Shown here: positions 16,005 through 52,183 of the stretch, piece after piece
Layout: the number at the start of each line of letters is the position of its first letter
How positions within the stretch are numbered: the first letter of the stretch is position 1
Assembly: GCA_905233625.1 (NCBI GenBank)
Contig: CAJOFJ010000009.1
Span: forward strand, 14,492-78,491
Source: an uncultured Bacteroidales bacterium
Lineage (GTDB): Bacteria; Bacteroidota; Bacteroidia; Bacteroidales; WCHB1-69
Length of the DNA stretch: 64,000 nucleotides
Reading direction: 5' to 3'
The notes under the pieces: model-generated
The model's input: only the letters and a program-made list of their open reading frames with translations
Database searches by the model: none
Told to the model about the DNA's origin: nothing
Translations under genes and position numbers: made by a program

Positions 16005-19000
16005 TTATCGTTTCACCACTTTTCCCACTCTGTTTCCTACTTTCACGATGTAGGTGCCAGAGGAATATGCACCTAAATTTATTTGCATGTGATTGTCAGT
16101 CAGTGGCATGTTTTGGAGCAGCTTGCCAAACATGTCGAAAACCATCACATATTCGTGTTTTTGAAGAAGTGCGTCGTCGTCAATCTCTATGGTAACAATT
16201 TGTGTTGTTGGGTTAGGATAAATCTTCAGAGAATGATTGTTGTTATGATTTTCGATACTGGCATCTACCCGTACATCAAGTAAAAGAACGACAGAACTGT
16301 CGCATCCGCTATGGGAGTTATAGGTCTCATAGAACATTTGTGTTCCTGGATTTGTGGTTTGTGAGGAAGAAATATTGAATCCGTTCTCATAATAGCCTTG
16401 TCCTGGCGTAATAGCCGCATAAATCAGTGTGTAGAGAGGCTCTATGGTTAGATAGAGCAGCCATACGGTATCTTGGAGATAGTTGTCATATTCCGCATTG
16501 CGTACACAGTGACGATATAAACCCGTAGTGTCGCAAATTTGGTCGAAGAAAGTGTATGTTTCTCCTTCGCAGATGGTGGCATGCTGAGTGTATGTGAAGG
16601 AGGGTGTAAATACTTTGTCGCGGTATTGGTTGTCCACGGACTGCAAACTTTCAATGGATACATCCCCACGGGTGACCGCTAGATAATGTGGAATGGTAGT
16701 CAGAGCAAATTCAAATTCTTGCATCTCACCAGCATTCAAATTGAAAGGACCGGCAGAGGCAAAACCAATTGAGGAAAAGTCTCCTACAGCTGCTGCTGTC
16801 CAACCGTCGGGTCCGTAGAGGCTATCGGGCACTTCCACTCCATACGTGGCGAAATTACAGGGACTGTCAGTATTGCCATAATATGAGAAACGACAATCTA
16901 TACCGGTTGCTCCCCAATTAGCAATACCTGTCGCCCCATAGGATAGATGAGTGCTATCAAACCAAAGGCTTTGCATGTATTTATAGATATGTTCTGCACT
17001 TTTAGGATCTCCGAATATGGAAGAACCATCACCGTGCCGTAAAAAGCCTGTTAATCCATATCGTTCATTGTCCACGATACTATCCCCGAAACCTGTGCCA
17101 TTGATGGCATATTCATTTAGACCATTATTGATGAATAAGGAGCAGTTGGCGGAATCTGTATAGGCGGGATTGTCAATGCTATCAGCCGGCATAAGTGGTC
17201 CGGAAAGAAGGGTCAAGGTCTGTACCGGCCAATCATAACCGTATGCATTATCGGGAACAATCCCTTCCTCTTCACCACTGATGCCATCCCAGGGGAATGC
17301 ATTATAGCAATAAGCGGTGTTCTTTTTGATGTCAAAGCCAACGTAATTGTCACGGTAATATCCTAAGTCCCAGTAGTTATCAATTCCAATATAGGTGTTG
17401 TGATAATTGTGTTGTGAACGATTATGTATTTTATATTTTATAAAAATCGTGTTGTTCATGATGGTGTCTTCAGGGGCATCGTAGGCATAGACCATTACAT
17501 GAGTTTCCACGCCGAGTGGGGCGCCATCGCTTTTATGTTGGGCATAGTTGTCGTTGAAAATGACAAACAACGCCATGTCACCGGGAAAGTCGGGGTAATC
17601 GCCGTGTTCGGGTTCATAGTGGTTATTGTTGTCCACATCTACAAATGGTGCCAGCAACCAAGCTTGTCCCTTGGAGGTGTCACCATGTGCGGGCCAGTCC
17701 AAAATACTTTGTGGTATTAGATATTCCGGATTTTGATAGTTGTCCAGGAATTCGGTAACTTCATCTCGCTTGATTTTGAAAGTTCGGTTCCATTTCATTA
17801 CAGTGGTATAATCCACAGAAGCGTCAACAGTTGATAAAGGACCCGGCCAGGAATCATATCGGGGGCGGGATGTCTCTCCCATTAGATGTAACTGTTCATT
17901 TTCATCAAGACCTCCTAAACTGAAACCATAATAAGAATAGGTGCACTTGTGGGTTCCTTTAGGAAAGAAGAAGCCACCTTCATTTATTGAACTAAGAAAC
18001 CAGCAACCTGCACTTGGTCTAATAAGCGCATCTATAGCGTTGATATCTATCCGGTTGGTGCGTTCCTCAATAATACTTTCTATATCAAACGAGCTGACCT
18101 CTTCCATTGTGTTTATGTTTTCCATGGAAAATTCAAATGTCGGCGCATTATTGTTGGTTACAATGTCTGGGTGGGTGCCGACTGCTGAGGAATAGAACAT
18201 GTAAGGTCTGGAGACCCGTATTTGCACAGTTGCGTCGTTGTCCAACCAGTTGGCCTCTTCACCTTCCGCAGGCATGGGGATGCTGGTCCACATCACATTG
18301 TTGAAGACTTGCATCTTACGAACTCTACGGTTCCTTTCGTTAAAATTGGTGTCTTGTGCAAAAGTCTTGAATTTCTCACTAAGCCATTTGCCTTCATCAT
18401 ATACCCCACATTCATAGTAAGGATATTCCACTCCGTCAGTTCCTGTAAATGTGCCACCTGCACCATTGTCGTTGTAATTTCTTTGACTATTGCTGGACCG
18501 GTAATAGGTGTTGGCGGTATTTCCTGAACTACCGCAAATATAAATGTAGTGTCTTCCACCATTCAGAGGTTCTCCCAAAAAATTTGCGGATAGACCACCG
18601 TCATAAATGCTTAAATATAGGGAATCGTACTCGCTTTGTTCCATTGGTATAGGCTGTCCGTTGGTCCCCAAAATACAAGCTCCAGTGTTGTCTTTCTTGA
18701 AGGCATATACATTGGTGGGATTGAATATCATGTCATTGCCACGATTGTATTCGTCTTCTGAATTTTCGGCAAACATGATGTTCAGTCGCTCGCCAGTCTC
18801 CACGTTGATGGCGTAGCCTGGGAACCAGCCGAATCCCGTAGTGCCGCTATTGTCAGGATTGCCGTTTTTATCTACTGACGGGCATGTTTTAGGTTCATGA
18901 CGGATATTGTAGTAGGTTTGCCCATTGAAATGCTGGGTGACTTTGTATCCGTTTGCTTCTGTGCCAGAGCCTGCCTCCAACACCAAAGCCCGTGTCCATT

Positions 19001-20072
19001 TATTTTGGTCGGGCGTGAATACGATATCCACAGAATACAGATTGGTAAGCGTCTGATTATAGCCTGTGGCGTTATCTGTTCCCGCTAACTCTCTGAAGTC
19101 ATAACAATATGGCTGTGGATATTCTAGGAAATCATAATTCAATGCTGTATCAGGTGTTATGTAATTGGCTTTAGGACCACCATCGTAAGGAGAAGTCATC
19201 ATATACGGAGCCCATAATCCGTCCGTTATATGTTCATATTGTCCGTGATAATCTATAAAGCCTCGAAGATACCAAGAATAGTTAAAATCGTTATCAGTGT
19301 ATTCCTCGCTGTCGTATGGAGTGAAAAAGTCTTCTTGCCGCCACTTTAAATAAAAAGCATTTGCACCGTCTCCCCATTCGGTGTGCATCCAGGTTTCCAG
19401 AGAGGAAATTTGGTGGCCTGCCCTAATCCAGTTATTGGGCGTGAATGTCTCTGCATCTTGTAATCCTCCCAGCCAATGATGCGTTCCTTCGTATTTCACT
19501 CTTGAACCCACTAAATCAGGTTGCGCATATTTTGAAATATTGGAGAAAAGCTGTTCCTTGTTGTAATTTTTCAGGTAAGTTTCTAATGGAACATCTTGTA
19601 TAGAAAAAGGATGGTTTTTAACAGTTATAGCGATACCATGGTCTTCAAGAATCTCCTCTATACCTTGGCCTATACTATATTGTGAGGTGTAACTGCCTGA
19701 TGTGGAGTCAATTTCGTTATACCATTCCAAAATCCAATGAGCAGAAGTGTCCACCAAAGAATTATCCATGGCGTTTTGCAGAGGAGCAATTTTCAGTTTG
19801 TACTTGTAATTCTGCAGGTGGGTTGGGTTGAACAGGCGTACAATGATCGGGGTGGTGCCGGCTTCATATTCCACATCTTGTACCTTCCATGGCGCTCCTG
19901 CCATGATGCGGTCACGTGTGTCAGCGGTTATGTTTAAGTAATTGCCACCATTGCCTTGTCCTTCAAGACGTTTCACTTTGACATAAAGTGGAGTGTCATC
20001 CTGTGCTGTAGCAGAGAAGATACAAGACAAGAACAACATGGAGAAACATACGATAGTATAAAATTTCTTCAT
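16005..20072 (-). CDS. Large secreted protein with a T9SS type A C-terminal sorting domain (function unknown)
   Basis: 1355 aa. Signal peptide MKKFYTIVCFSMLFLSCIFSATAQ. The C-terminal ~80 aa (LKIYPNPTTQIVTIEI…GTYIVKVGNRVGKVVKR) match the Por secretion tail pattern. Confidence 0.8.
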   Translation of the reverse strand: MKKFYTIVCFSMLFLSCIFSATAQDDTPLYVKVKRLEGQGNGGNYLNITADTRDRIMAGAPWKVQDVEYEAGTTPIIVRLFNPTHLQNYKYKLKIAPLQNAMDNSLVDTSAHWILEWYNEIDSTSGSYTSQYSIGQGIEEILEDHGIAITVKNHPFSIQDVPLETYLKNYNKEQLFSNISKYAQPDLVGSRVKYEGTHHWLGGLQDAETFTPNNWIRAGHQISSLETWMHTEWGDGANAFYLKWRQEDFFTPYDSEEYTDNDFNYSWYLRGFIDYHGQYEHITDGLWAPYMMTSPYDGGPKANYITPDTALNYDFLEYPQPYCYDFRELAGTDNATGYNQTLTNLYSVDIVFTPDQNKWTRALVLEAGSGTEANGYKVTQHFNGQTYYNIRHEPKTCPSVDKNGNPDNSGTTGFGWFPGYAINVETGERLNIMFAENSEDEYNRGNDMIFNPTNVYAFKKDNTGACILGTNGQPIPMEQSEYDSLYLSIYDGGLSANFLGEPLNGGRHYIYICGSSGNTANTYYRSSNSQRNYNDNGAGGTFTGTDGVEYPYYECGVYDEGKWLSEKFKTFAQDTNFNERNRRVRKMQVFNNVMWTSIPMPAEGEEANWLDNDATVQIRVSRPYMFYSSAVGTHPDIVTNNNAPTFEFSMENINTMEEVSSFDIESIIEERTNRIDINAIDALIRPSAGCWFLSSINEGGFFFPKGTHKCTYSYYGFSLGGLDENEQLHLMGETSRPRYDSWPGPLSTVDASVDYTTVMKWNRTFKIKRDEVTEFLDNYQNPEYLIPQSILDWPAHGDTSKGQAWLLAPFVDVDNNNHYEPEHGDYPDFPGDMALFVIFNDNYAQHKSDGAPLGVETHVMVYAYDAPEDTIMNNTIFIKYKIHNRSQHNYHNTYIGIDNYWDLGYYRDNYVGFDIKKNTAYCYNAFPWDGISGEEEGIVPDNAYGYDWPVQTLTLLSGPLMPADSIDNPAYTDSANCSLFINNGLNEYAINGTGFGDSIVDNERYGLTGFLRHGDGSSIFGDPKSAEHIYKYMQSLWFDSTHLSYGATGIANWGATGIDCRFSYYGNTDSPCNFATYGVEVPDSLYGPDGWTAAAVGDFSSIGFASAGPFNLNAGEMQEFEFALTTIPHYLAVTRGDVSIESLQSVDNQYRDKVFTPSFTYTQHATICEGETYTFFDQICDTTGLYRHCVRNAEYDNYLQDTVWLLYLTIEPLYTLIYAAITPGQGYYENGFNISSSQTTNPGTQMFYETYNSHSGCDSSVVLLLDVRVDASIENHNNNHSLKIYPNPTTQIVTIEIDDDALLQKHEYVMVFDMFGKLLQNMPLTDNHMQINLGAYSSGTYIVKVGNRVGKVVKR

Positions 20073-20351: not shown

Positions 20352-21425
20352 TTACGCTTCCTGTTTGCTGATATTCAGCAGCACGCCGGTGGCGATGCCG
20401 GCGAAGAGCAGGGAGGCGCCGCCGCGACTGATGAAGGGCAGTGTCTGGCCGGTGGCGGGCAGGAGCCCGCAGTTAACGCCGATGTGCACCAAGCCCTGAC
20501 AGCAGAACCAGAATCCTATACCTACTGCCAATAGCATACCGAAGGGGCCTTCGCTTTGCTTGGCAATTTTCACGGAACGGATGAACAGCATCAGGTAACA
20601 GGCCAGAATAATGAGGCTGACGGTGACACCCAATTCCTCGGTAACGGTGGTAAAGACATAGTCCGTGTCTTTTTCGGGCAGTTTTTTGTTGATAACGCCT
20701 TGTCCTGGTCCCGCCGGCAGCAGCCCCGAACGGGCGATGGCCGCTTTCGACATGATCATCTGGTCACCATAGCCTTCGCTGTTATCGTTGGTGATATAAT
20801 AATGGCAGCGGTGGCGGAAAGTGCTGGAACGGCCTGAATTGGTGCCGAAAAGATAGATGGAACCGAAGAAGACCGCTACAAGGCAGAACAATAGCAAATG
20901 CTTGATTTTGACATTGCCGATAAACATGATGGCCAGGCTGGTGGCGAAAAAGATGATGGCGGTGGACATGTTGCTGATGGCCATGCCCCCCATGAAAAAC
21001 AGTACGACACAAAAGAGTCCTGACACCTCCTGCAGCGTCATCTCGGAACCATTGTTGATACGCACAGCCAAAAATTTGGCAATAAAAAAGATGGCTAAGA
21101 AACCGATAAAATAAAAGGTCTGGATTTCCATGGAGCCGATTTTGATACCACGGTGTTCGTCATTGCCGAACGCCAATGTGGCAATCAGCAGGATAGCGGC
21201 AGCAAGGAGGGAGAGAATTGCCAATCTCGATAAAGCCCTGTAATTGATTTTATAGGCAATAAACATTCCGATAAAACAAAGGGCGAGGTTGAATAGATGA
21301 TGAGTGAAAACAGAAGTCGATTTGGCTGAACTCAGCACCGCGAATATGGAAATCAGCGACAAGACGACAGTGATGATCAAAACAGCCTTGTCCCCTTTGA
21401 ATTTTATTTTCTCCTGCAGACTCAT
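20352..21425 (-). CDS. ftsW: SEDS family protein (FtsW/RodA homolog), short and divergent
   Basis: 357 aa at the dcw position. Conserved PEKDTDYVFTTVTEELG and GLLPATGQTLPFISRGGAS are present, but the R-W…Q-P-S-E…K loop motif reads HRGIKIGSMEIQTFYFIG. Confidence 0.7.
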   Translation of the reverse strand: MSLQEKIKFKGDKAVLIITVVLSLISIFAVLSSAKSTSVFTHHLFNLALCFIGMFIAYKINYRALSRLAILSLLAAAILLIATLAFGNDEHRGIKIGSMEIQTFYFIGFLAIFFIAKFLAVRINNGSEMTLQEVSGLFCVVLFFMGGMAISNMSTAIIFFATSLAIMFIGNVKIKHLLLFCLVAVFFGSIYLFGTNSGRSSTFRHRCHYYITNDNSEGYGDQMIMSKAAIARSGLLPAGPGQGVINKKLPEKDTDYVFTTVTEELGVTVSLIILACYLMLFIRSVKIAKQSEGPFGMLLAVGIGFWFCCQGLVHIGVNCGLLPATGQTLPFISRGGASLLFAGIATGVLLNISKQEA

Positions 21426-21429
21426 TTTC

Positions 21430-21504
21430 TATTTAATTAAGAACTAAGAATTAAGAGTTAAGAATAAATCGCAGTTCTTAATTCTTAGTTTTTAGTTCTT
21501 AGTT
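21430..21504. repeat. TTAAGAA heptamer array and its inverted copy (hairpin) between ftsW and the murD remnant
   Basis: Left arm ttaagaactaagaattaagagttaagaat (21436-21464). Right arm ttcttaattcttagtttttagttcttagtt (21475-21504). Confidence 0.8.
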
Positions 21505-22062
21505 TTATAACTGTGCTACTGCGTCTTTGAACTTGTCACCTCTCTCACGGTAGGTGCGGTACATGCCGAAGCTGGTGGTGCCTGGGGCGAAAAGGATGGC
21601 ATCGCCAGGGGCTGAGGCGTAATAGGCGGTACGCACAGCGTCTTCCATATTCATGCAGCAATCTACCTGTTTGTCAAGATTGGAAAAGAATTCCATGATT
21701 TCGGGGTTGTAAACGCCCAAAAGGATGATGTGTTTCACTTTCTCGTTGATAATGTCCACGAGGCTGTCGCTGATGCTTTCGCGATTCTCAATGCTCATGA
21801 TCCAGGTGGTGGGTTTGGACATGCTTTCCAAAGCGAACCACACGGCATTGATATTGGTGGAACGGGAGTCGTTGATGAAATCTTTGCCTTCGATGGTTTT
21901 GACCAGCTCCAGATTGTTGGCACTGCCCTCGAAGTCGGACATGGATTCGTTCAAGCTTTCGTTACGTGCGTGGAGCAGTCTGCCCGCTACGGCAGCGGCC
22001 ATGCTGCTGCGGTTGTCTGTGGTTGGGAATACGTTGTACCCGATGTTTTTGTTTGCTGCCAT
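21505..22062 (-). CDS. murD: MurD C-terminal-domain-only ORF (remnant of UDP-N-acetylmuramoylalanine--D-glutamate ligase; N-terminal and ATPase domains absent)
   Basis: 185 aa at the murD position, 21 nt after the mraY stop. GKDFINDSRSTNINAVWFALESM and RTYRERGDKFKDAV align to the MurD C-domain. There is no GxGxxG Rossmann motif and no GTNGKT P-loop, and several conserved C-domain residues are changed. Confidence 0.65.
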   Translation of the reverse strand: MAANKNIGYNVFPTTDNRSSMAAAVAGRLLHARNESLNESMSDFEGSANNLELVKTIEGKDFINDSRSTNINAVWFALESMSKPTTWIMSIENRESISDSLVDIINEKVKHIILLGVYNPEIMEFFSNLDKQVDCCMNMEDAVRTAYYASAPGDAILFAPGTTSFGMYRTYRERGDKFKDAVAQL

Positions 22063-22083
22063 ATCTTTTTATCTTTTAATATT

Positions 22084-23340
22084 TTATCTTACTTTGAGTG
22101 TTAATAATGAAACTATTGCCAGCATGATGCCGATGACGATGAAGCGCTGTACGATTTTGGCTTCATGCAGGCCTTTTTTCTGGAAATGATGATGGATAGG
22201 CGTCATCAGGAAGACACGCCGGCCTTCACCGTATTTTTTCTTGGTGTATTTGAAATAGCTTACTTGGATGATGACGGAGATGGACTCCATGAGATAAATG
22301 CCGCAGAGGATGGGAATCAGCAGTTCCTTTCTGATGATGATACACAATACGGCGATGATACCACCCAAACTCAGACTGCCGGTGTCACCCATGAATACCT
22401 GCGCGGGGAAGCAGTTCCACCAGTAGAAACCGATGCAGGCTCCAATCAGGGCAGCGATGAAGACTACCAATTCGCCGATGTTGGGGATGTACATGATGTT
22501 CAGATAATCGGCGAAAATGCTGTTGCCCGACAGATAGGCGAAAATGGCTATGCCAACGGCGATGACCGCCGCTGTTCCTGTTGCCAAGCCGTCCAACCCG
22601 TCGGTGAGATTGGCACCGTTGGAGACTGCCGCGATGATGAAAATGATGATGAGAATGTAAACCAGCGAAGACAGAATACCAGATTTGTCACCTATCCAGT
22701 TGGTGAGCCATGCGTAGTCAAACTCGTTGTTTTTGACAAATGGAATGGTGGTTTTGGTGGAGTGCTGAGCAGGACTGTTGCTGAAAGCGGTGGTGGTGCG
22801 GTTCACATTGTCCACTTTGAACACTTCCTCGGTTTTGACGAGCTTTTCGCTTTCCGTGCTTTTTTCTTTGATGACCACATCAGGATGGAAACACATCACC
22901 AAGCCTACGATGAGACCCAAAATAATTTGTCCTATGAGTTTCTTTTTTCCAGAAAGACCTTCTTTGTTTTTCTTGAATACTTTGATATAATCATCGATAA
23001 ATCCTAAGCATCCTAACCATATAGTGGTGAATATCATCAGGATAATGTAGATGTTGCTCAACTTGTTCAGCAACAAAACCGGTATTATGATGGAGGCGAT
23101 AATGATGATGCCGCCCATGGTGGGGGTGCCTTTTTTCTGCAGTTGTCCTTCCAAACCGAGGTCGCGAACGGTCTCGCCAATCTGGGCTTTTTGCAGTTTC
23201 TTGATAACGCTTTTGCCGATGATCAGAGAGATGAACAACGACAGCACAATGGCGGTGGCTGCTCTGAATGAGATGTATTGGAACATTCCCGCACCGGGGA
23301 AATTGTGTCCATGAAGCCAGTCGAAAAGGTAGTACAACAT
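22084..23340 (-). CDS. mraY: Phospho-N-acetylmuramoyl-pentapeptide transferase
   Basis: 418 aa. MLYYLFDWL…GTPTMGG…GFIDDYIKV…[10 protein letters not shown]…FMGDTGSL motifs, plus a Bacteroidota-type insertion. Confidence 0.95.
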
Positions 23341-23544: not shown

Positions 23545-25020
23545 TTATAGGTTAAAGTTTGCTTTTATCTCTTCCGTGTCATCAAAATGATGCTTTACAT
23601 GATTGATTTCCTGATAGTTTTCGTGACCTTTGCCAGCTACTAGCAAAACATCTTTGCCTTGCATCAGCATGCAGGCGGTTTTGATGGCCTCGTGGCGGTT
23701 CTCGATGACCAACACTTTGCGTTTCTGGTCAGCACTGACTCCGGTGAGCATGTCGTTGAGGATGTCTTCAGGTTTCTCGGTGCGGGGGTTGTCGGAAGTC
23801 AGGATGACCTTGTCGCTGTATTCGCAGGCGATGGCAGCCATCTCGGGGCGTTTCAGTTTGTCGCGGTCACCACCGCAACCCACCACCGTGATGATGTTCA
23901 CACTGTGTTGCGTGATGTCGGTGATGGTGGAGAGTACATTCTTCAGTGCATCGGGAGTATGGGCGTAATCTACGATGGCAGAACCTCCTTCGTTGTTGCG
24001 GATCAGCTGGAAACGGCCAGCGGCACTTCCAAGGCCGCTCATTTGTTTCAGTACTTCGGCGGAATTCATGCCCAGGAGGATGGCGGCACCATAAATGGCC
24101 AGCAGGTTATAGGCGTTGAAGCGTCCGCACAGGTTGAAAAACACTTCTTGTCCGTTGATGGTCATTTGCAGGCCGGTGAAGTCATTGTCTAAAATCACTC
24201 CTTTGAAATCAGCGGCTTTCAATAGGCTGTATGTGTGCACCTTAGCTTTGCTGTTCTGGGTCATCACCAAGCCGTTTTTGTCGTCGATGTTAGTCAGGGC
24301 AAAGGCGCTTTCCGGCAGATCGTCAAAGAATTTCTTCTTGGCCTTGATGTATTCGGCGAAGGTTTTGTGATAGTCCAGATGGTCGTGGGTGATGTTGCTG
24401 AAGAGGCCTCCGGCAAAGTGCAATCCCGCAATACGGTGTTGGCAGATGGCATGTGAGCTGACCTCCATGAAGCAGTACTGGCAGCCAGCATCTACCATGC
24501 GGTGCAACAGCTCGTTCAGGACGATGGCGTCAGGGGTGGTATGTGTGGTGGGAATCACCTCGTTTTCAATACGGTTCTCAATGGTGGAGAGCAATCCCGT
24601 GGGGTAGCCCATACTGTTGAACAAACGGTACAGCAGGGTAACGGTAGTGGTTTTGCCGTTGGTGCCGGTAATGCCTACCAAGTGCAGTTTCTGGCTGGGA
24701 AAATCATAAAAGGCGCTGGCCAAAAGACCTAAGGCAATGTCGCTGCTGGGAACCTTGATGAAGGTAACATCTTTAGGTAGAGACATTTCATGAAACGTCT
24801 CTACAGGGATTTCCTCGCAGACAATCATTCTGCCGCCCTGTTCAATGACTTTACCAATGAAGCTGTGGCCGTCGACGTGGGTACCGCGCTGGGCGACAAA
24901 CAAGGTGTTGGGATCATTCACCTTGCGTGAGTCAAAAGTGATGGCCTCCACCTGACGGTCAGCGGAACCGATAAGTTCGTATTTTCCAATATGTTGCAAT
25001 AAAAAAGACAGTGTTTTCAT
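23545..25020 (-). CDS. murE: UDP-N-acetylmuramoyl-L-alanyl-D-glutamate--2,6-diaminopimelate ligase
   Basis: GITGTNGKTTT P-loop and the DNPRTE motif. The start is set at the ATG at 25020 (MKTLSFLL), 16 nt after the ftsI stop; the track ORF extends further upstream to 25101. Confidence 0.9.
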   Translation of the reverse strand: MKTLSFLLQHIGKYELIGSADRQVEAITFDSRKVNDPNTLFVAQRGTHVDGHSFIGKVIEQGGRMIVCEEIPVETFHEMSLPKDVTFIKVPSSDIALGLLASAFYDFPSQKLHLVGITGTNGKTTTVTLLYRLFNSMGYPTGLLSTIENRIENEVIPTTHTTPDAIVLNELLHRMVDAGCQYCFMEVSSHAICQHRIAGLHFAGGLFSNITHDHLDYHKTFAEYIKAKKKFFDDLPESAFALTNIDDKNGLVMTQNSKAKVHTYSLLKAADFKGVILDNDFTGLQMTINGQEVFFNLCGRFNAYNLLAIYGAAILLGMNSAEVLKQMSGLGSAAGRFQLIRNNEGGSAIVDYAHTPDALKNVLSTITDITQHSVNIITVVGCGGDRDKLKRPEMAAIACEYSDKVILTSDNPRTEKPEDILNDMLTGVSADQKRKVLVIENRHEAIKTACMLMQGKDVLLVAGKGHENYQEINHVKHHFDDTEEIKANFNL

Positions 25021-25036
25021 TGCTTTTTTTTTTTGA

Positions 25037-27271
25037 TTATTCCAAATAGAGAGTAACAGTGTTGGTGCTGGCATCCAGCTCTTGGCGGCGTACCACACCA
25101 TAGCCTTTGATTTTTACTTTATAGCCTGCTCTGGTCAGTTCGCTCACGGCATCAGAGGCAATCATCTCCGACACATTCGGCAGTTTGTCGCCCTGTTTGA
25201 AGGGGGCAGATTTCAGGATGACGGCATAGTCTTTGTTCAGTCCGGAGTTTACGTAGGGAACTGGTAGCTGATTCTTGGGATAGTCGATACCCAAATGTTC
25301 CATGATGAGCTGATATTGCTGTGAGTTAACCACGTGTGTACGGGGTAGTTTGGTGCCGTTATCATGTTTGACATTTTGAAGGGCGCCGTAGCTGGTGTGA
25401 ATCATGATGTTTCGGGCGATGCGTGCAAAAACATCCACGGCGATATAACTTTTTTTGGAAACGTTATACATGAACACCAGACAAGTATATTGTGGGTTTT
25501 CGCTGGGAAAATAGCCGCAGAAGGAGACGCTGTTTTTGCTGTAGTTGTAGGCTTTGAGGTCTTCGTCCCAGATGTCGCGGGTACCGGTTTTGCCAGCGAA
25601 GTTGAAATTGGGATCGCGGTAGCGGCGTGCTGTTCCGTGTTCGCCTGTGACAACTGCTTCCAAATAGCTTTTCGCTTTGGCGATGGTTTGTGGACTGCAG
25701 ATCCGTTCGTTGAGGACTTCTGCCTGATAAGTCTTGATAGGCTCGGTTTCGTGAGCTTTGGTAATGTATTTGACAAACAGTGGTGCGATCATTTTGCCAT
25801 TGTTGGCAATGGCATTGTAATACACCAGCGTCTGTATCGGTGTCATGGTGAAACCTGCGCCGAAACAGGTGTTGTAGTATGTGTGGAAGTCTTTGGCAGT
25901 ACGTTTGAGGTTAGGAGCCTGCACCTTGCCCAACTGGGTGGAGAAAGAGGTAGTGATATAAAGTTGGTCGATTTTATTCAGATAGAGCTTGTAATTGTTA
26001 TCGCCAAAGGCGTCGAAAATCATGGAGGCGATACCTACATTGGAAGAACGCTGTATGATGTCAATGGGATAACCGTATTCAGTATTTCTGTCTTTCTCAT
26101 CGTATTTTGGGAATTCGTAAGTTTTGCTGCCATCCTTGCTTTTCCGTTTGAAAACGCGGTAAAGCATCTCATAGGACTGGCTGTCGTCGCCGTTTCTCTG
26201 TTCAAGATAGGCGAGGGCGGAGGCAATTTTGAATGTGGAACCTGGCTCCACCATCTTGTGCAACACGTACTCGTCGCTTTCGGTGTAGTCGCTGCCGTCA
26301 CGGTTGGCACGGCGCAGGTTGCAGAGGGCCTTGATCTCACCCGTTTGAGTTTCCATGACCACAGCGCAACCCCATTCTGCGTTTTGTTCTATCAGCTTGG
26401 CTTTCAATTCATTATGAACAATATTCTGAATCTCAAGATTCAGTGTGGTATGCACATCGCAGCCATCAACGGGTTCTACATAATCGTTCATGGGCAATTG
26501 CGCATTGTTGACATATAAGTATTTACTTGCGCCTTTCACCCCGGCCAGCTGCTCATCGAAGTAATATTCCAGTCCGTACTGACGACCGTCGAGGTTCATT
26601 CCCAGGGTGCGTTTGGCCAAGTCGCCGTAAGGATTGGTACGAACCGCAAGAGAAGTGTAGTTGACACAGCTTTTGCAAGGCCTTTCGGAAAACATCGGCA
26701 GTTTTTTGATAAAGGCGGTGTCTTCCTCTGTAATCCATTGGCGCTCATTCTCCTTTTTGGATTGAAGAATAAGCATGTTGCGCTGGTCAATCAGGGCTGA
26801 TTTGAATTTTTTGCGGTAGTATTCGAGAGAATAATTTGGAAATCTATGATTGAAGTGATTATAGAATTCAACACTCAGATCCTCGACAAGTTTGTTCAGT
26901 TTGGCGGCCGAATGGGTGTAAATGGTGTCTTTTTTCCCGAAAACGCGACCGTCGATGGTAATGTCGAAAACGATAACATTGCTGACCAGCACGTGGTTCA
27001 TGTCGTCGTAGATCTCGCCTCTCACGGGGTTCTCGTTGAAGGCCTTAACATAGCAGTTGCAGTTGGGATCTTGGGCAAGCGGGTTGTTTTCCCATCCTTC
27101 TTGGGTCTTGTCGAGGCACTTGGAAGAGGTACCGTTGTATAAGCTGCGCTGAAAAATGACCAAATGCAGAATTTTGCCGAAGCAAAGAATGCCCAGCAAC
27201 AACACCAAAAACAGGACTACTCCCATTTTCACGTTGAAGAGCCTTTGCTGCGTGTTGTCGTTATTCTGCAT
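25037..27271 (-). CDS. ftsI: Penicillin-binding protein (class B transpeptidase, FtsI/PBP3-like)
   Basis: 744 aa with an N-terminal TM anchor. SxxK (GSTFK), SxN (SSN) and KTG (GKTGT) motifs. Confidence 0.85.
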   Translation of the reverse strand: MQNNDNTQQRLFNVKMGVVLFLVLLLGILCFGKILHLVIFQRSLYNGTSSKCLDKTQEGWENNPLAQDPNCNCYVKAFNENPVRGEIYDDMNHVLVSNVIVFDITIDGRVFGKKDTIYTHSAAKLNKLVEDLSVEFYNHFNHRFPNYSLEYYRKKFKSALIDQRNMLILQSKKENERQWITEEDTAFIKKLPMFSERPCKSCVNYTSLAVRTNPYGDLAKRTLGMNLDGRQYGLEYYFDEQLAGVKGASKYLYVNNAQLPMNDYVEPVDGCDVHTTLNLEIQNIVHNELKAKLIEQNAEWGCAVVMETQTGEIKALCNLRRANRDGSDYTESDEYVLHKMVEPGSTFKIASALAYLEQRNGDDSQSYEMLYRVFKRKSKDGSKTYEFPKYDEKDRNTEYGYPIDIIQRSSNVGIASMIFDAFGDNNYKLYLNKIDQLYITTSFSTQLGKVQAPNLKRTAKDFHTYYNTCFGAGFTMTPIQTLVYYNAIANNGKMIAPLFVKYITKAHETEPIKTYQAEVLNERICSPQTIAKAKSYLEAVVTGEHGTARRYRDPNFNFAGKTGTRDIWDEDLKAYNYSKNSVSFCGYFPSENPQYTCLVFMYNVSKKSYIAVDVFARIARNIMIHTSYGALQNVKHDNGTKLPRTHVVNSQQYQLIMEHLGIDYPKNQLPVPYVNSGLNKDYAVILKSAPFKQGDKLPNVSEMIASDAVSELTRAGYKVKIKGYGVVRRQELDASTNTVTLYLE

Positions 27272-27632
27272 TTTCGGTAGTGTTGTGGACGATGATTTTA
27301 TAGATATTTTTTTCGTTTTTTTCGAAGCCCTGTCTGTTCAGCATCTGAACCAGTTCTTGGTTTTCTTCATAAAGAATGTACTGGTTGTTGTGTTTCAGAG
27401 TACTGATGACTTTTTTATATTCTGTTTCCAACTGCTTGATACGCTGTCTTTTGGAGTTCATGTTATGCTCGTTAAGCACAGTCAGTATCATGAGGAAAAA
27501 AACAAAGCCGATGAAAGGGTACCAGCGGATGGTTTCCTTGGCAAAGAGGAAGTCACCGGAAATCAGTTGTTTCCAGATGCTGTCGCCCTTGGTTTTGGGC
27601 TCTTTGGGTTCCTGTTTGCTGGTGGTTATCAT
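27261..27632 (-). CDS. FtsL-like cell division protein (Bacteroidota type)
   Basis: 123 aa from the ATG at 27632 (MITTSKQEPKEPK…). One TM helix (WYPFIGFVFFLMILTVL) then a coiled coil. It sits between rsmH and ftsI. The upstream part of the track ORF overlaps rsmH and is not counted. Confidence 0.7.
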   Translation of the reverse strand: MITTSKQEPKEPKTKGDSIWKQLISGDFLFAKETIRWYPFIGFVFFLMILTVLNEHNMNSKRQRIKQLETEYKKVISTLKHNNQYILYEENQELVQMLNRQGFEKNEKNIYKIIVHNTTENAE

Positions 27633-27637
27633 GCTTG

Positions 27638-28573
27638 TTATTTTTTCTCTGCCACTCTTAATTTTGCGCTGCGGGCGCGCGGGTTCACAGCTATTTCGTC
27701 TTCGTCGGGAGTGATGGCTTTGCGGGTAATCAGCGTGAACGGGGTCATCAGGTTGCCGAAGAAGTCTTTTTCGGCCTCGCCCTCGAACTTGCCGGATCGC
27801 ATGAAGTTCTTGACCAAGCGGTCTTCCAGCGAATGGTAGGCGATGACGACGAGGCGTCCGCCGGGTTTCAGGCACTCAACGCTCTGGCTCAGAAATTCCT
27901 TCAACACCGACATTTCGTCGTTCACTTCAATTCTGATGGCTTGGAACAGCTGCGACAGCACCTTGTTTTCCTTGTCTCTGGGCAGTAGGGGGTTCACAGC
28001 GGCGACAAGCTGGGCGGTGGTGGCAATTTCGGCTTTCTCGCGCTCATTCACAATTTGACGTGCCAGTTGTTTGCCGTTGGGCAGCTCACCGTAGGTGTAG
28101 AAAATGGAAGCCAGACGTTCGGGGGCATAACCGTTGATAATCTCGCGTGCGGAAACCCCTTTCTGCTGGTTCATGCGCATGTCCAGAGCTCCGTCGAAAC
28201 GGTGCGAAAAGCCACGTTCTGCGGTGTCGAACTGGTACGACGACACCCCAAGATCTGCCAAGATACCGTCGGCGGGACAGCATTTGTAGTACTGGGCGAA
28301 TTTTTTGAGGTGGCGGAAGTTGCTGGGAACAAATTGGAAACGCTCGTCGTCAATAATATTACTATGGGCGTCAGGGTCCTGGTCGAAAGCCAGCAAACGG
28401 CCGTCGGGGGACAGTGTTTCCAAAATTTTCCGGGAATGGCCGCCACCGCCAAAGGTGACATCGATATACAGACCGGAAGGGTTAGTGACAAGCTGCTGGA
28501 TGGATTCCGCAAGGAGGACCGGATTATGGTAACTCATTGGTTTCCTCCTTTCGCGCAGTGTTAAATTGGCCAA
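27638..28573 (-). CDS. rsmH: 16S rRNA (cytosine1402-N4)-methyltransferase
   Basis: HNPVLL…DVTFGGGGHS…DLGVSS…SLEDR motifs. An alternative start is the ATG at 28537 (MSYHNPVL). Confidence 0.9.
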   Translation of the reverse strand: MANLTLRERRKPMSYHNPVLLAESIQQLVTNPSGLYIDVTFGGGGHSRKILETLSPDGRLLAFDQDPDAHSNIIDDERFQFVPSNFRHLKKFAQYYKCCPADGILADLGVSSYQFDTAERGFSHRFDGALDMRMNQQKGVSAREIINGYAPERLASIFYTYGELPNGKQLARQIVNEREKAEIATTAQLVAAVNPLLPRDKENKVLSQLFQAIRIEVNDEMSVLKEFLSQSVECLKPGGRLVVIAYHSLEDRLVKNFMRSGKFEGEAEKDFFGNLMTPFTLITRKAITPDEDEIAVNPRARSAKLRVAEKK

Positions 28574-29012
28574 GGTGGATGGCCTCGTTCAACTTGTTCA
28601 ATTCTTCTGGGGTCATGTCGAACTCTTTGTGGTATTCCTCGCTGTTCCACAGCTCGATCTTGCCGTTGTCAAGAATCAAAACCACTTCACGGTCAATATG
28701 ATACAGCTCCATGAAGGGCTTGGGAATCACGAGACGGTCTTGCGAGTCACATTCCACAAAGGTATTGCGCGTAAGAAATGCGTTGCGGTATTTCTTGATA
28801 GCTATGATGTTTCTGTCCAAAGAGTTGAGATAGTCCATCTGTTGCTGATAAGCCTTGACGGTCCATAGGGCAATATGATTACCGAAACCGGGGGTGACCA
28901 CAAAACTCTTGCGGTCGTCTTCGGCCAACGACTTGAGCAGCATGGTGGGCAATTTGATACGCCCATGCTTCTCAATGGCAACTTCCCAATAACCGTAATC
29001 GAATGCAGACAT
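28524..29012 (-). CDS. mraZ: Division/cell wall cluster transcriptional regulator MraZ
   Basis: 162 aa, first gene of the dcw cluster. Two SpoVT/AbrB-like halves (KHGRIKLP and SQDRLVIP). Confidence 0.8.
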   Translation of the reverse strand: MSAFDYGYWEVAIEKHGRIKLPTMLLKSLAEDDRKSFVVTPGFGNHIALWTVKAYQQQMDYLNSLDRNIIAIKKYRNAFLTRNTFVECDSQDRLVIPKPFMELYHIDREVVLILDNGKIELWNSEEYHKEFDMTPEELNKLNEAIHLGQFNTARKEETNELP

Positions 29013-50197: not shown

Positions 50198-52183
50198 ATG
50201 AAAAAGACATTTTTACTACTTATCTGTCTGCTGGTGTGTTGCGTCGCTGCATTCTCCCAAAGCGTAACCCTTACCTTTACCGCCAAAGATGTAGCCAACC
50301 ACTATGTGCAACTCAACAGGGTTACTATTACCAACCTGACCAAAAGCTGGCAGGAGACGATATATTGGCCTGACACCACGCTAACCATGCAGAATGGCAC
50401 AGGAATCGGTGATGTAGAGACGCACGGCCGTGCGTCTCTACAATTGTCCCAAAATAACCCCAATCCTTTCACCGGCACCACCGAGGTGAGCCTTACGGTA
50501 GAGGAAGAGGATGAGGTGATGTTGGATATTGCGGATGTAAACGGAAAAACCGTAGGGACGCATCGCATGCGTCCGCAGGCGGGTATCCACCAATTCCGCG
50601 TTACCTTGTCTACCTCTGGCACATACATTATGACCGCCCGCCAGAACGGGCAGACTTCTTCCATCAAGATGGTATGCAACGGTGGCGGGGATGGCAATAG
50701 GATTGAATATACGGGAAACGGCGGTGATGCATCGCATGCGTCCGCAACCCAATCCAAAAACGGTCCCAAATATACCACCACCCACCCTTTCAATTTCGGG
50801 GATCAGATGGAATATGTGGGCTATGCCACCATTAATGGCAGCGAGGTAGAAAGCCAGCGCATCTCACAGCCACAAGGTGCTTCCCAGACCTTTACTTTGC
50901 AGTTTGCCGAAATAGATGGCTCGGTCATTACCGTGATAACCAATCTTGCTACTGAAATATCCTATTACTCAGCCATTTGCGGTGGCAATGTTATTTATGA
51001 CGGGGAAGAAAATATAATAGTGCGAGGAATTTGTTGGAACACATTGCATAATCCCACTGCCAACCATAATCATATTAGTTGTGGTAGTGGTGTGGGCAGT
51101 TATAACTGTAATATCTATTCTCTAAATCCTGGTACTACTTATTATGTGCGTGCTTACGCAACGAGCGTATTAGGAACTGTATATGGTAATGAGGTGGAAT
51201 TTGCCACAATGCCATTGACTATACCAACAGTATCCACTTCTGCCGTGACCGACATTACTCCATTTTATGCAAATAGTGGTGGGACGGTGATAGATGATGG
51301 GGGGTATTTTAACGAAACAATCCGTGGCGTATGCTGGAGCACCTCGCAAAACCCAACAATAAGTAACAGCCACACTACTAATGGTAGTGGTACGGGCATT
51401 TTTACCAGTCAACTGACAGGACTAAATCCTGGCACCACCTATTATGTGCGTGCATATGCCACTAACAGTGCAGGTACATCATATGGAGAACAACAGATAT
51501 TTACTACCTATACACTGATTCCTTGTCCAGGTGCTGCCACTGTGACCGATATTGACAATAACACATACAACACGGTGCAAATCGGCAACCAGTGCTGGAT
51601 GAAGGAAAACTTGCGGACGACCCGTTATTCCAATGGCACAAGCATTGCTTTGGGGAGTAGCACAAGCACCACAACGGCTTATCGTTATTATCCCAATGAT
51701 GACCAATCCAATGTATCCACCTACGGTTATTTGTACAATTGGAAGGCGGTGATGGGGAACTCATCCTCCAGTAGTGCCAATCCCAGTGGGGTGCAAGGCA
51801 TTTGTCCTACTGGTTGGCATGTTCCGAGTGATGCGGAGTGGACGCAGTTGACCGATTATGTGAGCGGTCAGAGCCAGTATGTGTGCGGTGTTAGTAACAG
51901 CCATATAGCCAAGGCCTTGGCATCTACAACGGGATGGCAAAGCAGTTCCCAAATTTGTGCAGTGGGCAATAATCCAAATGCCAATAATGCGACTGGTTTC
52001 TCGGTCCTTCCCTCTGAAGGAGGAGGTTATGGCGACTACGCCTACTTTTGGAGTGCTACGGAGGTTGGTTCTTTTTCCGCATACTGTATGGGTCTTGCTT
52101 ACGATATGCCTGATGTATACAGAGGAGGGGACTTAGAAATATACAAGTACCTCGGTTTCTCAGTTCGTTGTCTTCGCGATTAG
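50198..52183 (+). CDS. Secreted multidomain protein: internal T9SS-CTD-like domain, two Fn3-like repeats, C-terminal FISUMP (Fibrobacter succinogenes major paralogous) domain
   Basis: 661 aa with a signal peptide. LSQNNPNPFTGTTEVSL…GTYIMTARQNGQTSSIKMV resembles a Por secretion tail. There are two ~95-aa repeats (ICWNT…GTTYYVRAYAT). The C-terminus has QCWMKENL…YGYLYNW…CPTGWHVPSDAEW…FSVRCLRD. Confidence 0.75.
   Translation: MKKTFLLLICLLVCCVAAFSQSVTLTFTAKDVANHYVQLNRVTITNLTKSWQETIYWPDTTLTMQNGTGIGDVETHGRASLQLSQNNPNPFTGTTEVSLTVEEEDEVMLDIADVNGKTVGTHRMRPQAGIHQFRVTLSTSGTYIMTARQNGQTSSIKMVCNGGGDGNRIEYTGNGGDASHASATQSKNGPKYTTTHPFNFGDQMEYVGYATINGSEVESQRISQPQGASQTFTLQFAEIDGSVITVITNLATEISYYSAICGGNVIYDGEENIIVRGICWNTLHNPTANHNHISCGSGVGSYNCNIYSLNPGTTYYVRAYATSVLGTVYGNEVEFATMPLTIPTVSTSAVTDITPFYANSGGTVIDDGGYFNETIRGVCWSTSQNPTISNSHTTNGSGTGIFTSQLTGLNPGTTYYVRAYATNSAGTSYGEQQIFTTYTLIPCPGAATVTDIDNNTYNTVQIGNQCWMKENLRTTRYSNGTSIALGSSTSTTTAYRYYPNDDQSNVSTYGYLYNWKAVMGNSSSSSANPSGVQGICPTGWHVPSDAEWTQLTDYVSGQSQYVCGVSNSHIAKALASTTGWQSSSQICAVGNNPNANNATGFSVLPSEGGGYGDYAYFWSATEVGSFSAYCMGLAYDMPDVYRGGDLEIYKYLGFSVRCLRD

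Follow-up and report, generated by a model that had tools for sequence, protein, structure and literature searches.

MurD is generally seen as universal and essential, an enzyme of one chain with three domains, and it has long been an antibiotic target. It is the UDP-N-acetylmuramoyl-L-alanine:D-glutamate ligase (EC 6.3.2.9) represented by the E. coli structures 1UAG to 4UAG. Domain 3 of the canonical enzyme binds D-Glu and the ATP ribose, and the closure of this domain as a rigid body drives Mur-ligase catalysis. To our knowledge, split Mur ligases are without precedent; a search of the full-text literature found no report of a split, truncated or C-terminal-domain-only (C-only) murD.

The lipid II isoglutamine amidotransferase MurT/GatD offers, by analogy, a precedent for a domain-reduced Mur-ligase homologue that works in a complex: MurT lacks the N-terminal domain and is active only within the two-protein complex. 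Unlike the protein described here, MurT has retained the central ATP-binding domain, and its C-domain is of the DUF1727 type; the two proteins share no specific sequence similarity. GatD, unlike the partner that a two-piece MurD would have, is a glutaminase and not a Mur-ligase fragment. The MurE-like subunit of the plant plastid-encoded RNA polymerase uses the Mur-ligase fold as a non-enzymatic structural part and can serve as a model for repurposing, but it is a full-length MurE homologue in a eukaryotic, unrelated complex.

Stand-alone copies of MurD domain 3 also occur next to a complete murD. At two loci (L080, ORF 654-1181, + strand; L120, ORF 1579-2148, + strand), an extra MurD-C-like ORF of 170-190 aa follows the complete gene. 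These ORFs resemble the gene described below in encoding MurD domain 3 alone, just upstream of the (expected) ftsW, but they differ from it in adjoining a complete murD and are 28-32% identical to its product. Their identity to canonical C-domains is 38-51%. The extra L080 protein, of which P0395 is a database copy (98% identical), lacks the domain-2 helix. Judging from these sequences, the extra ORFs look like independent tandem partial duplications.

The window, by which we mean the whole 64-kb stretch of DNA analysed here, carries an ATG-initiated ORF of 185 codons plus stop in the slot between mraY and ftsW (Table 1). The preliminary description had placed a 185-aa ORF at the murD position, 21 nt after the mraY stop, and had aligned it to the last third of MurD. 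Its coordinates and the spacer were exact, and the motifs that it quoted (NRSSMAAAVAGRLL, DFEG, GKDFINDSRSTN and YRERGDKFKDAV) were all found in the ORF. The variants NNLE, SIENRE and APGTTSFG, which it had read as alterations of conserved C-domain positions, were also verified.

Table 1. Coordinates of the short murD gene, its segments and its neighbours in the window
Feature	Position	Strand	Evidence
Stand-alone MurD C-terminal piece gene (short murD)	21505..22062	-	TIGR01087 E=3e-37; >130 homologues; dN/dS ~0.09
Residues 1-19, variable N-terminal tail	22006..22062	-	pLDDT <50; dN/dS 0.154; highest column entropy
Residues 20-48, remnant of last MurD domain 2 helix and inter-domain linker	21919..22005	-	dN/dS 0.030
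Residues 49-185, MurD domain 3 (predicted)	21508..21918	-	pLDDT ~90; Foldseek; PDB profile search; residue map; dN/dS 0.061
Spacer between mraY stop and short murD start, 21 nt	22063..22083	-	Sequence
mraY, 418 aa, directly upstream in operon	22084..23340	-	Pfam Glycos_transf_4, MraY_sig1
ftsW, 357 aa, directly downstream; last dcw gene of region	20352..21425	-	Pfam FTSW_RODA_SPOVE, E=2e-47
Spacer between short murD and ftsW, 79 nt, long AU-rich hairpin	21426..21504	-	MFE, shuffles
murE ORF (as called: 491 aa, 23545-25020)	23545..25101	-	Pfam Mur_ligase, Mur_ligase_M, Mur_ligase_C
ftsI	25037-27271	-	Gene call and Pfam on identical contig L001
ftsL	27261-27632	-	Gene call and Pfam on identical contig L001
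rsmH	27638-28537	-	Gene call and Pfam on identical contig L001
mraZ	28524-29012	-	Gene call and Pfam on identical contig L001
1355-aa protein with T9SS sorting tail, in place expected for murG	16005..20072	-	Pfam Por_Secre_tail

Residues 16-183 of the ORF matched positions 273-440 of the 441 positions of the murD profile TIGR01087. The score of 128.8 bits lies below the curated full-length (equivalog) cut-off of 211.95 bits. Pfam Mur_ligase_C scored 23 bits, under its gathering score, which fits the divergence of the ORF. An AF2 model of the 185-aa protein, built on a 19-sequence alignment, reached high confidence over residues 50-185. Residues 1-19 were disordered, and residues 20-45 formed a helix of low confidence (pLDDT ~50) in the isolated protein. 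The top 33 Foldseek matches in the PDB were all MurD (7ti7, 4buc and 3lk7 at E 1e-10 to 1e-9), and weak matches to the plant MurE-like subunit (8r6s_Q, 8qma_O; TM ~0.42) were also obtained. A profile search of PDB sequences likewise returned MurD C-domains. The model and Foldseek confirmed the MurD domain-3 fold, and the TIGR01087 match and the PDB profile search likewise gave a MurD C-domain.

The rest of MurD was missing. The alignment begins at profile position 273, and the MurD-like_N (PF21799) region is absent from the ORF; the central ATP-binding domain (PF08245) gave no match in it. Across the whole 64 kb, MurE was the only hit of a six-frame regular-expression search for the Mur-ligase P-loop (G-x-x-G-K-T/S), of phmmer with E. 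coli MurD, and of an HMM of the MurD N-terminal plus central (N+M) region built from four Bacteroidota MurD N+M regions. Therefore, the window holds no MurD N-terminal or central domain in any frame, in agreement with the preliminary description. We also considered an overlapping or frameshifted N+M frame inside mraY and rejected it, as neither an ORF nor an HMM match was found there. Nor did the ORF resemble MurT: neither PF08245 nor DUF1727 matched it, and its neighbours are mraY and ftsW.

The 185-aa protein is not a MurD, as two of the three defining domains are missing and the curated cut-off is missed, but it is clearly derived from MurD and sits in the place of murD. It shares with MurD the slot between mraY and ftsW, the domain-3 fold, and residues D317, T321, S415, F/Y422, R425 and G426 (E. 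coli numbering). Unlike MurD, it has neither the UDP-binding N-domain nor the ATP-binding central domain (P-loop, K198 and the H183 region), and it lacks N271, K348 and the GG.DKG loop. On the sequence evidence, the protein cannot be a ligase alone. We are probably dealing either with an essential enzyme made in two pieces or with a MurD remnant that has a new job.

A more trivial reading is that a full-length murD has been broken by sequencing error or by an assembly or gene-calling artefact. Such cases do exist: the murD of L087 is frameshifted, that of L168 may be, and many database entries of ~182 aa are contig-edge fragments, P0119 being an example. At the locus in the window, the mraY stop lies 21 nt upstream, which leaves no sequence to encode the missing 265 residues. 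Moreover, the identical 185-aa protein was found on contigs from three independent samples, and the same architecture recurs in the assemblies of 68 species. The chance that an artefact explains the short gene is practically negligible.

We then examined how widely the gene is conserved. A protein search returned >130 clusters of homologues from Bacteroidales and 'Lentimicrobiaceae' MAGs, nearly all of them 185-186 aa long and reaching down to ~40% identity. Scanning one genome per GTDB species detected the gene in at least 68 species; this is a minimum, as the scan used patterns tailored to the sub-family of the window. The 68 carriers are all MAGs, obtained from rumen, termite gut, horse faeces, soil and digesters; among them is the complete 3.47-Mb chromosome OW818690.1, with the gene at about 421.5 kb. 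Contigs that carry the gene include JAKSMI010000001.1 (773 kb), CAKUVI010000001.1, OMYJ01000002.1 and JAFXSR010000011.1 (RGIG6710), the last with a 90% identical protein. The ~185-aa ORF was intact in 65 of the 68 extractable loci, and the gap between mraY and the short murD ranged from 2 to 130 nt in relatives. The median pairwise Nei-Gojobori dN/dS of the short gene, 0.09, compares with 0.11 for ftsW, 0.11 for rsmH, 0.13 for ftsI, 0.09 for mraZ and 0.06 for mraY in the same loci, values to be read with the caveat that dS is close to 1 in many of the pairs and that a few out-of-frame murE extractions are to be disregarded. The short murD gene is under purifying selection, and decay is excluded. 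This result bears out the earlier argument that the open frame speaks against simple decay.

The surrounding gene cluster turned out to be less complete than the preliminary description had supposed. The gene order in the 68 loci is mraZ-rsmH-ftsL-ftsI-murE-mraY-[short murD], followed by ftsW in all except L018 and L019. The dcw cluster had been called otherwise intact, but it stops after ftsW: murG, murC, ftsQ, ftsA and ftsZ were not found within the 64-kb window, and none of the 68 species had murG, murC or ftsQAZ within 10 kb. In the window, the 1355-aa T9SS protein takes up the place expected for murG after ftsW and so forms the boundary of the cluster. The gene beyond ftsW differs by sub-lineage, being a T9SS protein, a phosphoglucomutase, an ABC-F ATPase, a GH92 protein or a Fer4 protein. 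Since both flanking genes, mraY and ftsW, are in place, the short murD itself does not lie at the breakpoint. In the termite-gut lineages L027-L030, an insertion of 1-5 kb with a 69-aa ORF separates the short murD from ftsW.

C-only murD genes were also found in dcw clusters that have not been broken. An exhaustive profile search of 1.84 billion representatives returned roughly twelve clusters (50% identity) of family members, with canonical MurDs after them. A search seeded with the most divergent members returned many more proteins of 181-182 aa on long contigs. The genomic context was inspected for five of them: P0440 (L081-L083), P0398 (L084-L086), P0397 (L169-L171), P0471 (L172-L173) and P0394 (L174). 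For the first four, the C-only gene lies in a complete dcw cluster with the order murE-mraY-[C-only]-ftsW-murG-murC-ftsQ-ftsA-ftsZ. For P0394, whose contig is short, the order is identical from murE to ftsA, and the start of a gene that is probably ftsZ follows. The C-only genes of these intact clusters encode 181-182 aa, start 1-48 nt past mraY, and are the sole murD-like genes of the clusters, in P0394 as in the four other lineages.

We considered whether all 181-182-aa entries might be contig-edge fragments and rejected this, as the five that were checked are genuine C-only genes; the database class of ~182-aa entries is a mixture of genuine genes and fragments. Public annotations of C-only proteins range from 'hypothetical' to 'MurD' and even 'cyanophycin synthetase'.

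In a crude neighbour-joining tree, the window's family was monophyletic, with P0126 and P0394 basal. Because the dcw cluster is intact around the basal P0394 and in other lineages, the truncation predates the dcw break and the gene is not a breakpoint relic. Gene order and tree together indicate that the N-terminal two-thirds of murD was lost before, and independently of, the break in the window's clade. The preliminary description had raised a relic at a rearrangement breakpoint as one explanation. A decaying relic would account for the end of the dcw cluster right after ftsW in the window's clade and for the altered canonical motifs. It fails to account for a dN/dS of ~0.09, an intact frame and a presence in at least 68 species, or for the same truncation in intact clusters, that of a basal family member included. 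We therefore consider a relic highly improbable.

The first residue of every C-only protein is a Met that has a conserved internal counterpart in canonical Bacteroidota MurD, within a shared motif (M-x-I/L-E-x-L-A-L-x-G-x-H-N...S-M-A-A). This common start means that they hold the last domain 2 strand, helix and linker in addition to domain 3. In the window protein, residues 20-48 (SMAAAVAGRLL...DFEG) align to residues ~272-300 of E. coli MurD. When dN/dS was calculated by segment (Table 1), this helix-linker region showed the strongest constraint in the window's family, yet AF2 could not place it when the protein was modelled in isolation.

Among the C-only proteins, P0440 has diverged least. 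It retains HN, HRLE, NDSKATN, GGQDKG and SPACASFD, and its similarity to full-length MurDs (60-64%) matches theirs to each other. To follow these positions through the window's family, we mapped 111 members onto E. coli MurD numbering, using a sequence 100% identical to PDB 8v8w_A. In the E. coli MurD structures, N271, H301, R302, D317, K319, T321, K348, S415 and F422 are contacts to ATP and D-Glu, K348 contacting the D-Glu carboxylate. D317 was invariant (111/111), and S318, T321, N322, S415, Y422, R425 and G426 were also retained across the members. R302 and K319 showed conservative swaps, to K and R, respectively. H301 is mostly retained in the family, and the window's sub-lineage has Asn at both 301 and 302.

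Other positions of the window's family have changed. N271 is gone, V, I, L or R takes the place of K348, the GG.DKG loop has given way to other sequence, and position 417 is Gly instead of Asp. A family-specific Arg stands in place of E423, beside the D-Glu pocket, and the long branch leading to the family carries its own conserved features, for example TYRERG.KFK.AVAQL and two invariant Trp.

A second C-only clade (P0231, P0130, P0398, P0399 and P0389; 181-186 aa) is degenerating along its own path. HN is lost, HR.E has become HQ.E or HK.E, and NDSKATN has become NDSRACT or NDSHACS; P0398, a member of this clade, lies in an intact dcw cluster. This pattern suggests that the same catalytic positions were relaxed in parallel after truncation.

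These changes raise the question of whether the protein has left catalysis altogether. It could be a non-catalytic paralogue (a pseudoenzyme, accessory or regulatory protein) in a genome that has a complete murD elsewhere, and this is in keeping with the 'repurposed ligase C-domain' that the preliminary description had listed as a possibility. Its role might be, for example, that of a scaffold linking the cytoplasmic Mur enzymes to MraY/FtsW, or of a ligand-sensing regulator co-expressed with mraY and ftsW. The loss of N271, K348 and the GG.DKG loop, the change of D417 to Gly and, in the window's sub-lineage, the H301N and R302N changes all point in this direction, as does the family-specific conservation on the long branch. 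In addition, L080 and L120 pair an extra C-only protein with a full-length murD, and structural Mur-ligase-like proteins are known, with the plastid RNA polymerase MurE-like subunit being among the fold matches (8r6s_Q). However, a non-catalytic role leaves unexplained why the domain-2 elements are retained and are the most constrained part of the protein, why P0440-type proteins keep all catalytic residues, and why D317, T321, S415, Y422 and R425 are conserved. Furthermore, no second murD was seen in the loci examined around the gene. We regard a non-catalytic paralogue as the main rival to the reading that follows, at roughly one chance in three.

We tentatively favour, at a little short of an even chance, the reading that MurD is made in two pieces here and that the 185-aa protein supplies domain 3 in trans, an option that the preliminary description had not raised. 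The ORF is best explained as a working gene, passed on vertically, that encodes MurD 'domain 3' on its own; it arose when murD lost codons 1 to ~265 in an old deletion and a pre-existing in-frame Met was left as the start. As a subunit, the protein may still take part in the addition of D-glutamate to UDP-MurNAc-L-Ala. Its retained domain 2 strand and helix (residues ~1-45) would dock into a putative partner, a separately encoded N-terminal plus central module that would bind UDP-MurNAc-L-Ala and ATP. Domain 3 (residues 49-185) would close over the active site and position the incoming amino acid.

The state of the rest of the pathway is relevant here. MurE, MraY, FtsW and FtsI, together with MurG and MurC in relatives, are intact and constrained, which implies that peptidoglycan is made and that UDP-MurNAc-L-Ala-D-Glu must be supplied. 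By the same token, MurD activity should be needed in organisms with C-only clusters, where the remaining pathway is intact and constrained as well. The domain-2 elements would be unneeded by a free domain 3, yet they are kept and constrained, and we count this in favour of a two-piece MurD. Although we hold it with somewhat less than even confidence, a two-piece enzyme is the simplest model for the constrained domain-2 elements, the canonical C-only proteins and the conserved ligand-facing residues taken together.

Several observations count against a two-piece MurD. No N+M partner was found in the window, the flanks or 80 metagenome loci. The loss of K348, N271 and the GG.DKG loop, with Asn at both H301 and R302 in the sub-lineage, would also seem to weaken it, and C-domain paralogues coexist with full-length murD in L080 and L120.

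The search for the partner covered both the immediate neighbourhoods and wider databases. In the 68 GTDB loci, phmmer and HMM searches found no MurD N+M region, murC or murF within ±10 kb. In the intact clusters L081-L086, no N+M partner gene was found within ±6 to 10 kb, where MurE and MurC were the only matches. The MurC of intact clusters has the usual three domains (450-460 aa) and matched positions 11-201 of the MurD N+M profile (E ~1e-18). When the N+M part of P0131, the canonical MurD with the best score against the family profile, served as a protein query, only MurDs of Flavobacteriales and Crocinitomicaceae were returned, the query being too distant from the clade. A metagenome scan with an N+M alignment returned 80 loci, all of them canonical full-length murD, with no orphan N+M.

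Two N+M-only hits of the P0131 search were considered as orphan N+M genes and rejected. P0305 belongs to a canonical murD (L087:8001-9341, + strand) that appears in three pieces (303, 99 and 43 aa) on a long-read contig of 206 kb, almost certainly through frameshift errors. In long-read assemblies, short Mur-ligase ORFs should be checked in this respect before they are interpreted. For P0295, on a TARA marine scaffold, the C-part follows 12 nt later: the locus (L168:102-1465, + strand) comprises a murD N+M ORF of 293 aa, a gap of 12 nt and a separate C-domain ORF of 156 aa. Two explanations come into question: a true split into neighbouring ORFs, close to the junction seen in the C-only proteins, or an error of scaffolding or sequencing.

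The absence of a partner allows a further reading, in which the genome has no MurD N-terminal/central module at all. Domain 3 would then use the core of another Mur ligase, most plausibly MurC, or D-Glu would be added by an unrelated route with the protein assisting. MurC is the only candidate whose N-terminal domain is of the same type as that of MurD, and it is conceivable, if improbable, that domain 3, free but anchored through its domain-2 helix, makes use of the MurC catalytic core to add the second stem-peptide residue. In the intact clusters, MurC and MurE were the only proteins to match the MurD N+M profile, and no orphan N+M gene appeared among the searches run; both points count in favour of this reading. 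However, this is an argument from absence within small genomic neighbourhoods, and the MurC of C-only clusters is a normal three-domain protein. We know of no biochemical precedent for domain 3 working with the core of another Mur ligase. Overall, a genome lacking the module altogether seems unlikely to us.

Whichever of these readings applies, a large, entirely uncultured group of gut and anaerobic-digester Bacteroidales has kept domain 3 only at its murD locus over a long evolutionary time. The trait spans at least 68 species-level genomes of the window's family and several further lineages. An obligate two-gene MurD, if true, would itself be new; it would amount to a natural experiment on domain-3 closure and provide a ready-made system for studying domain assembly. 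If domain 3 does borrow the MurC core, an essential step of peptidoglycan synthesis that is targeted by drugs would have a modular architecture not known before. If a full-length copy is present elsewhere, the fragment would represent a new accessory protein that derives from a Mur ligase and is co-expressed with MraY and FtsW. For the scoring of pathway completeness in MAGs, the consequence is that MurD will be misjudged as present or absent.

The spacer between the short murD and ftsW also showed unusual features. The hairpin of the 79-nt spacer has an MFE of -18.6 kcal/mol (z = -4.3 vs shuffles), and an Rfam search of 20-30 kb of the window gave no match. At the same site, the closest relatives (L007-L009, L012, L013 and L015) carry different, longer hairpin-forming inserts of short repeated motifs, and in more distant relatives the spacers are 17-44 nt long and have no hairpin. 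This suggests that palindromic inserts within the operon are evolving fast at this spacer.

Elsewhere in the window, positions 50198-52183 (+ strand) encode a large secreted protein in which a Fibrobacter succinogenes major paralogous domain occurs along with a Por_Secre_tail-like match at an internal position. Together with the 1355-aa protein and the sample sources, this second large secreted protein fits a fibre-associated gut or rumen Bacteroidales.
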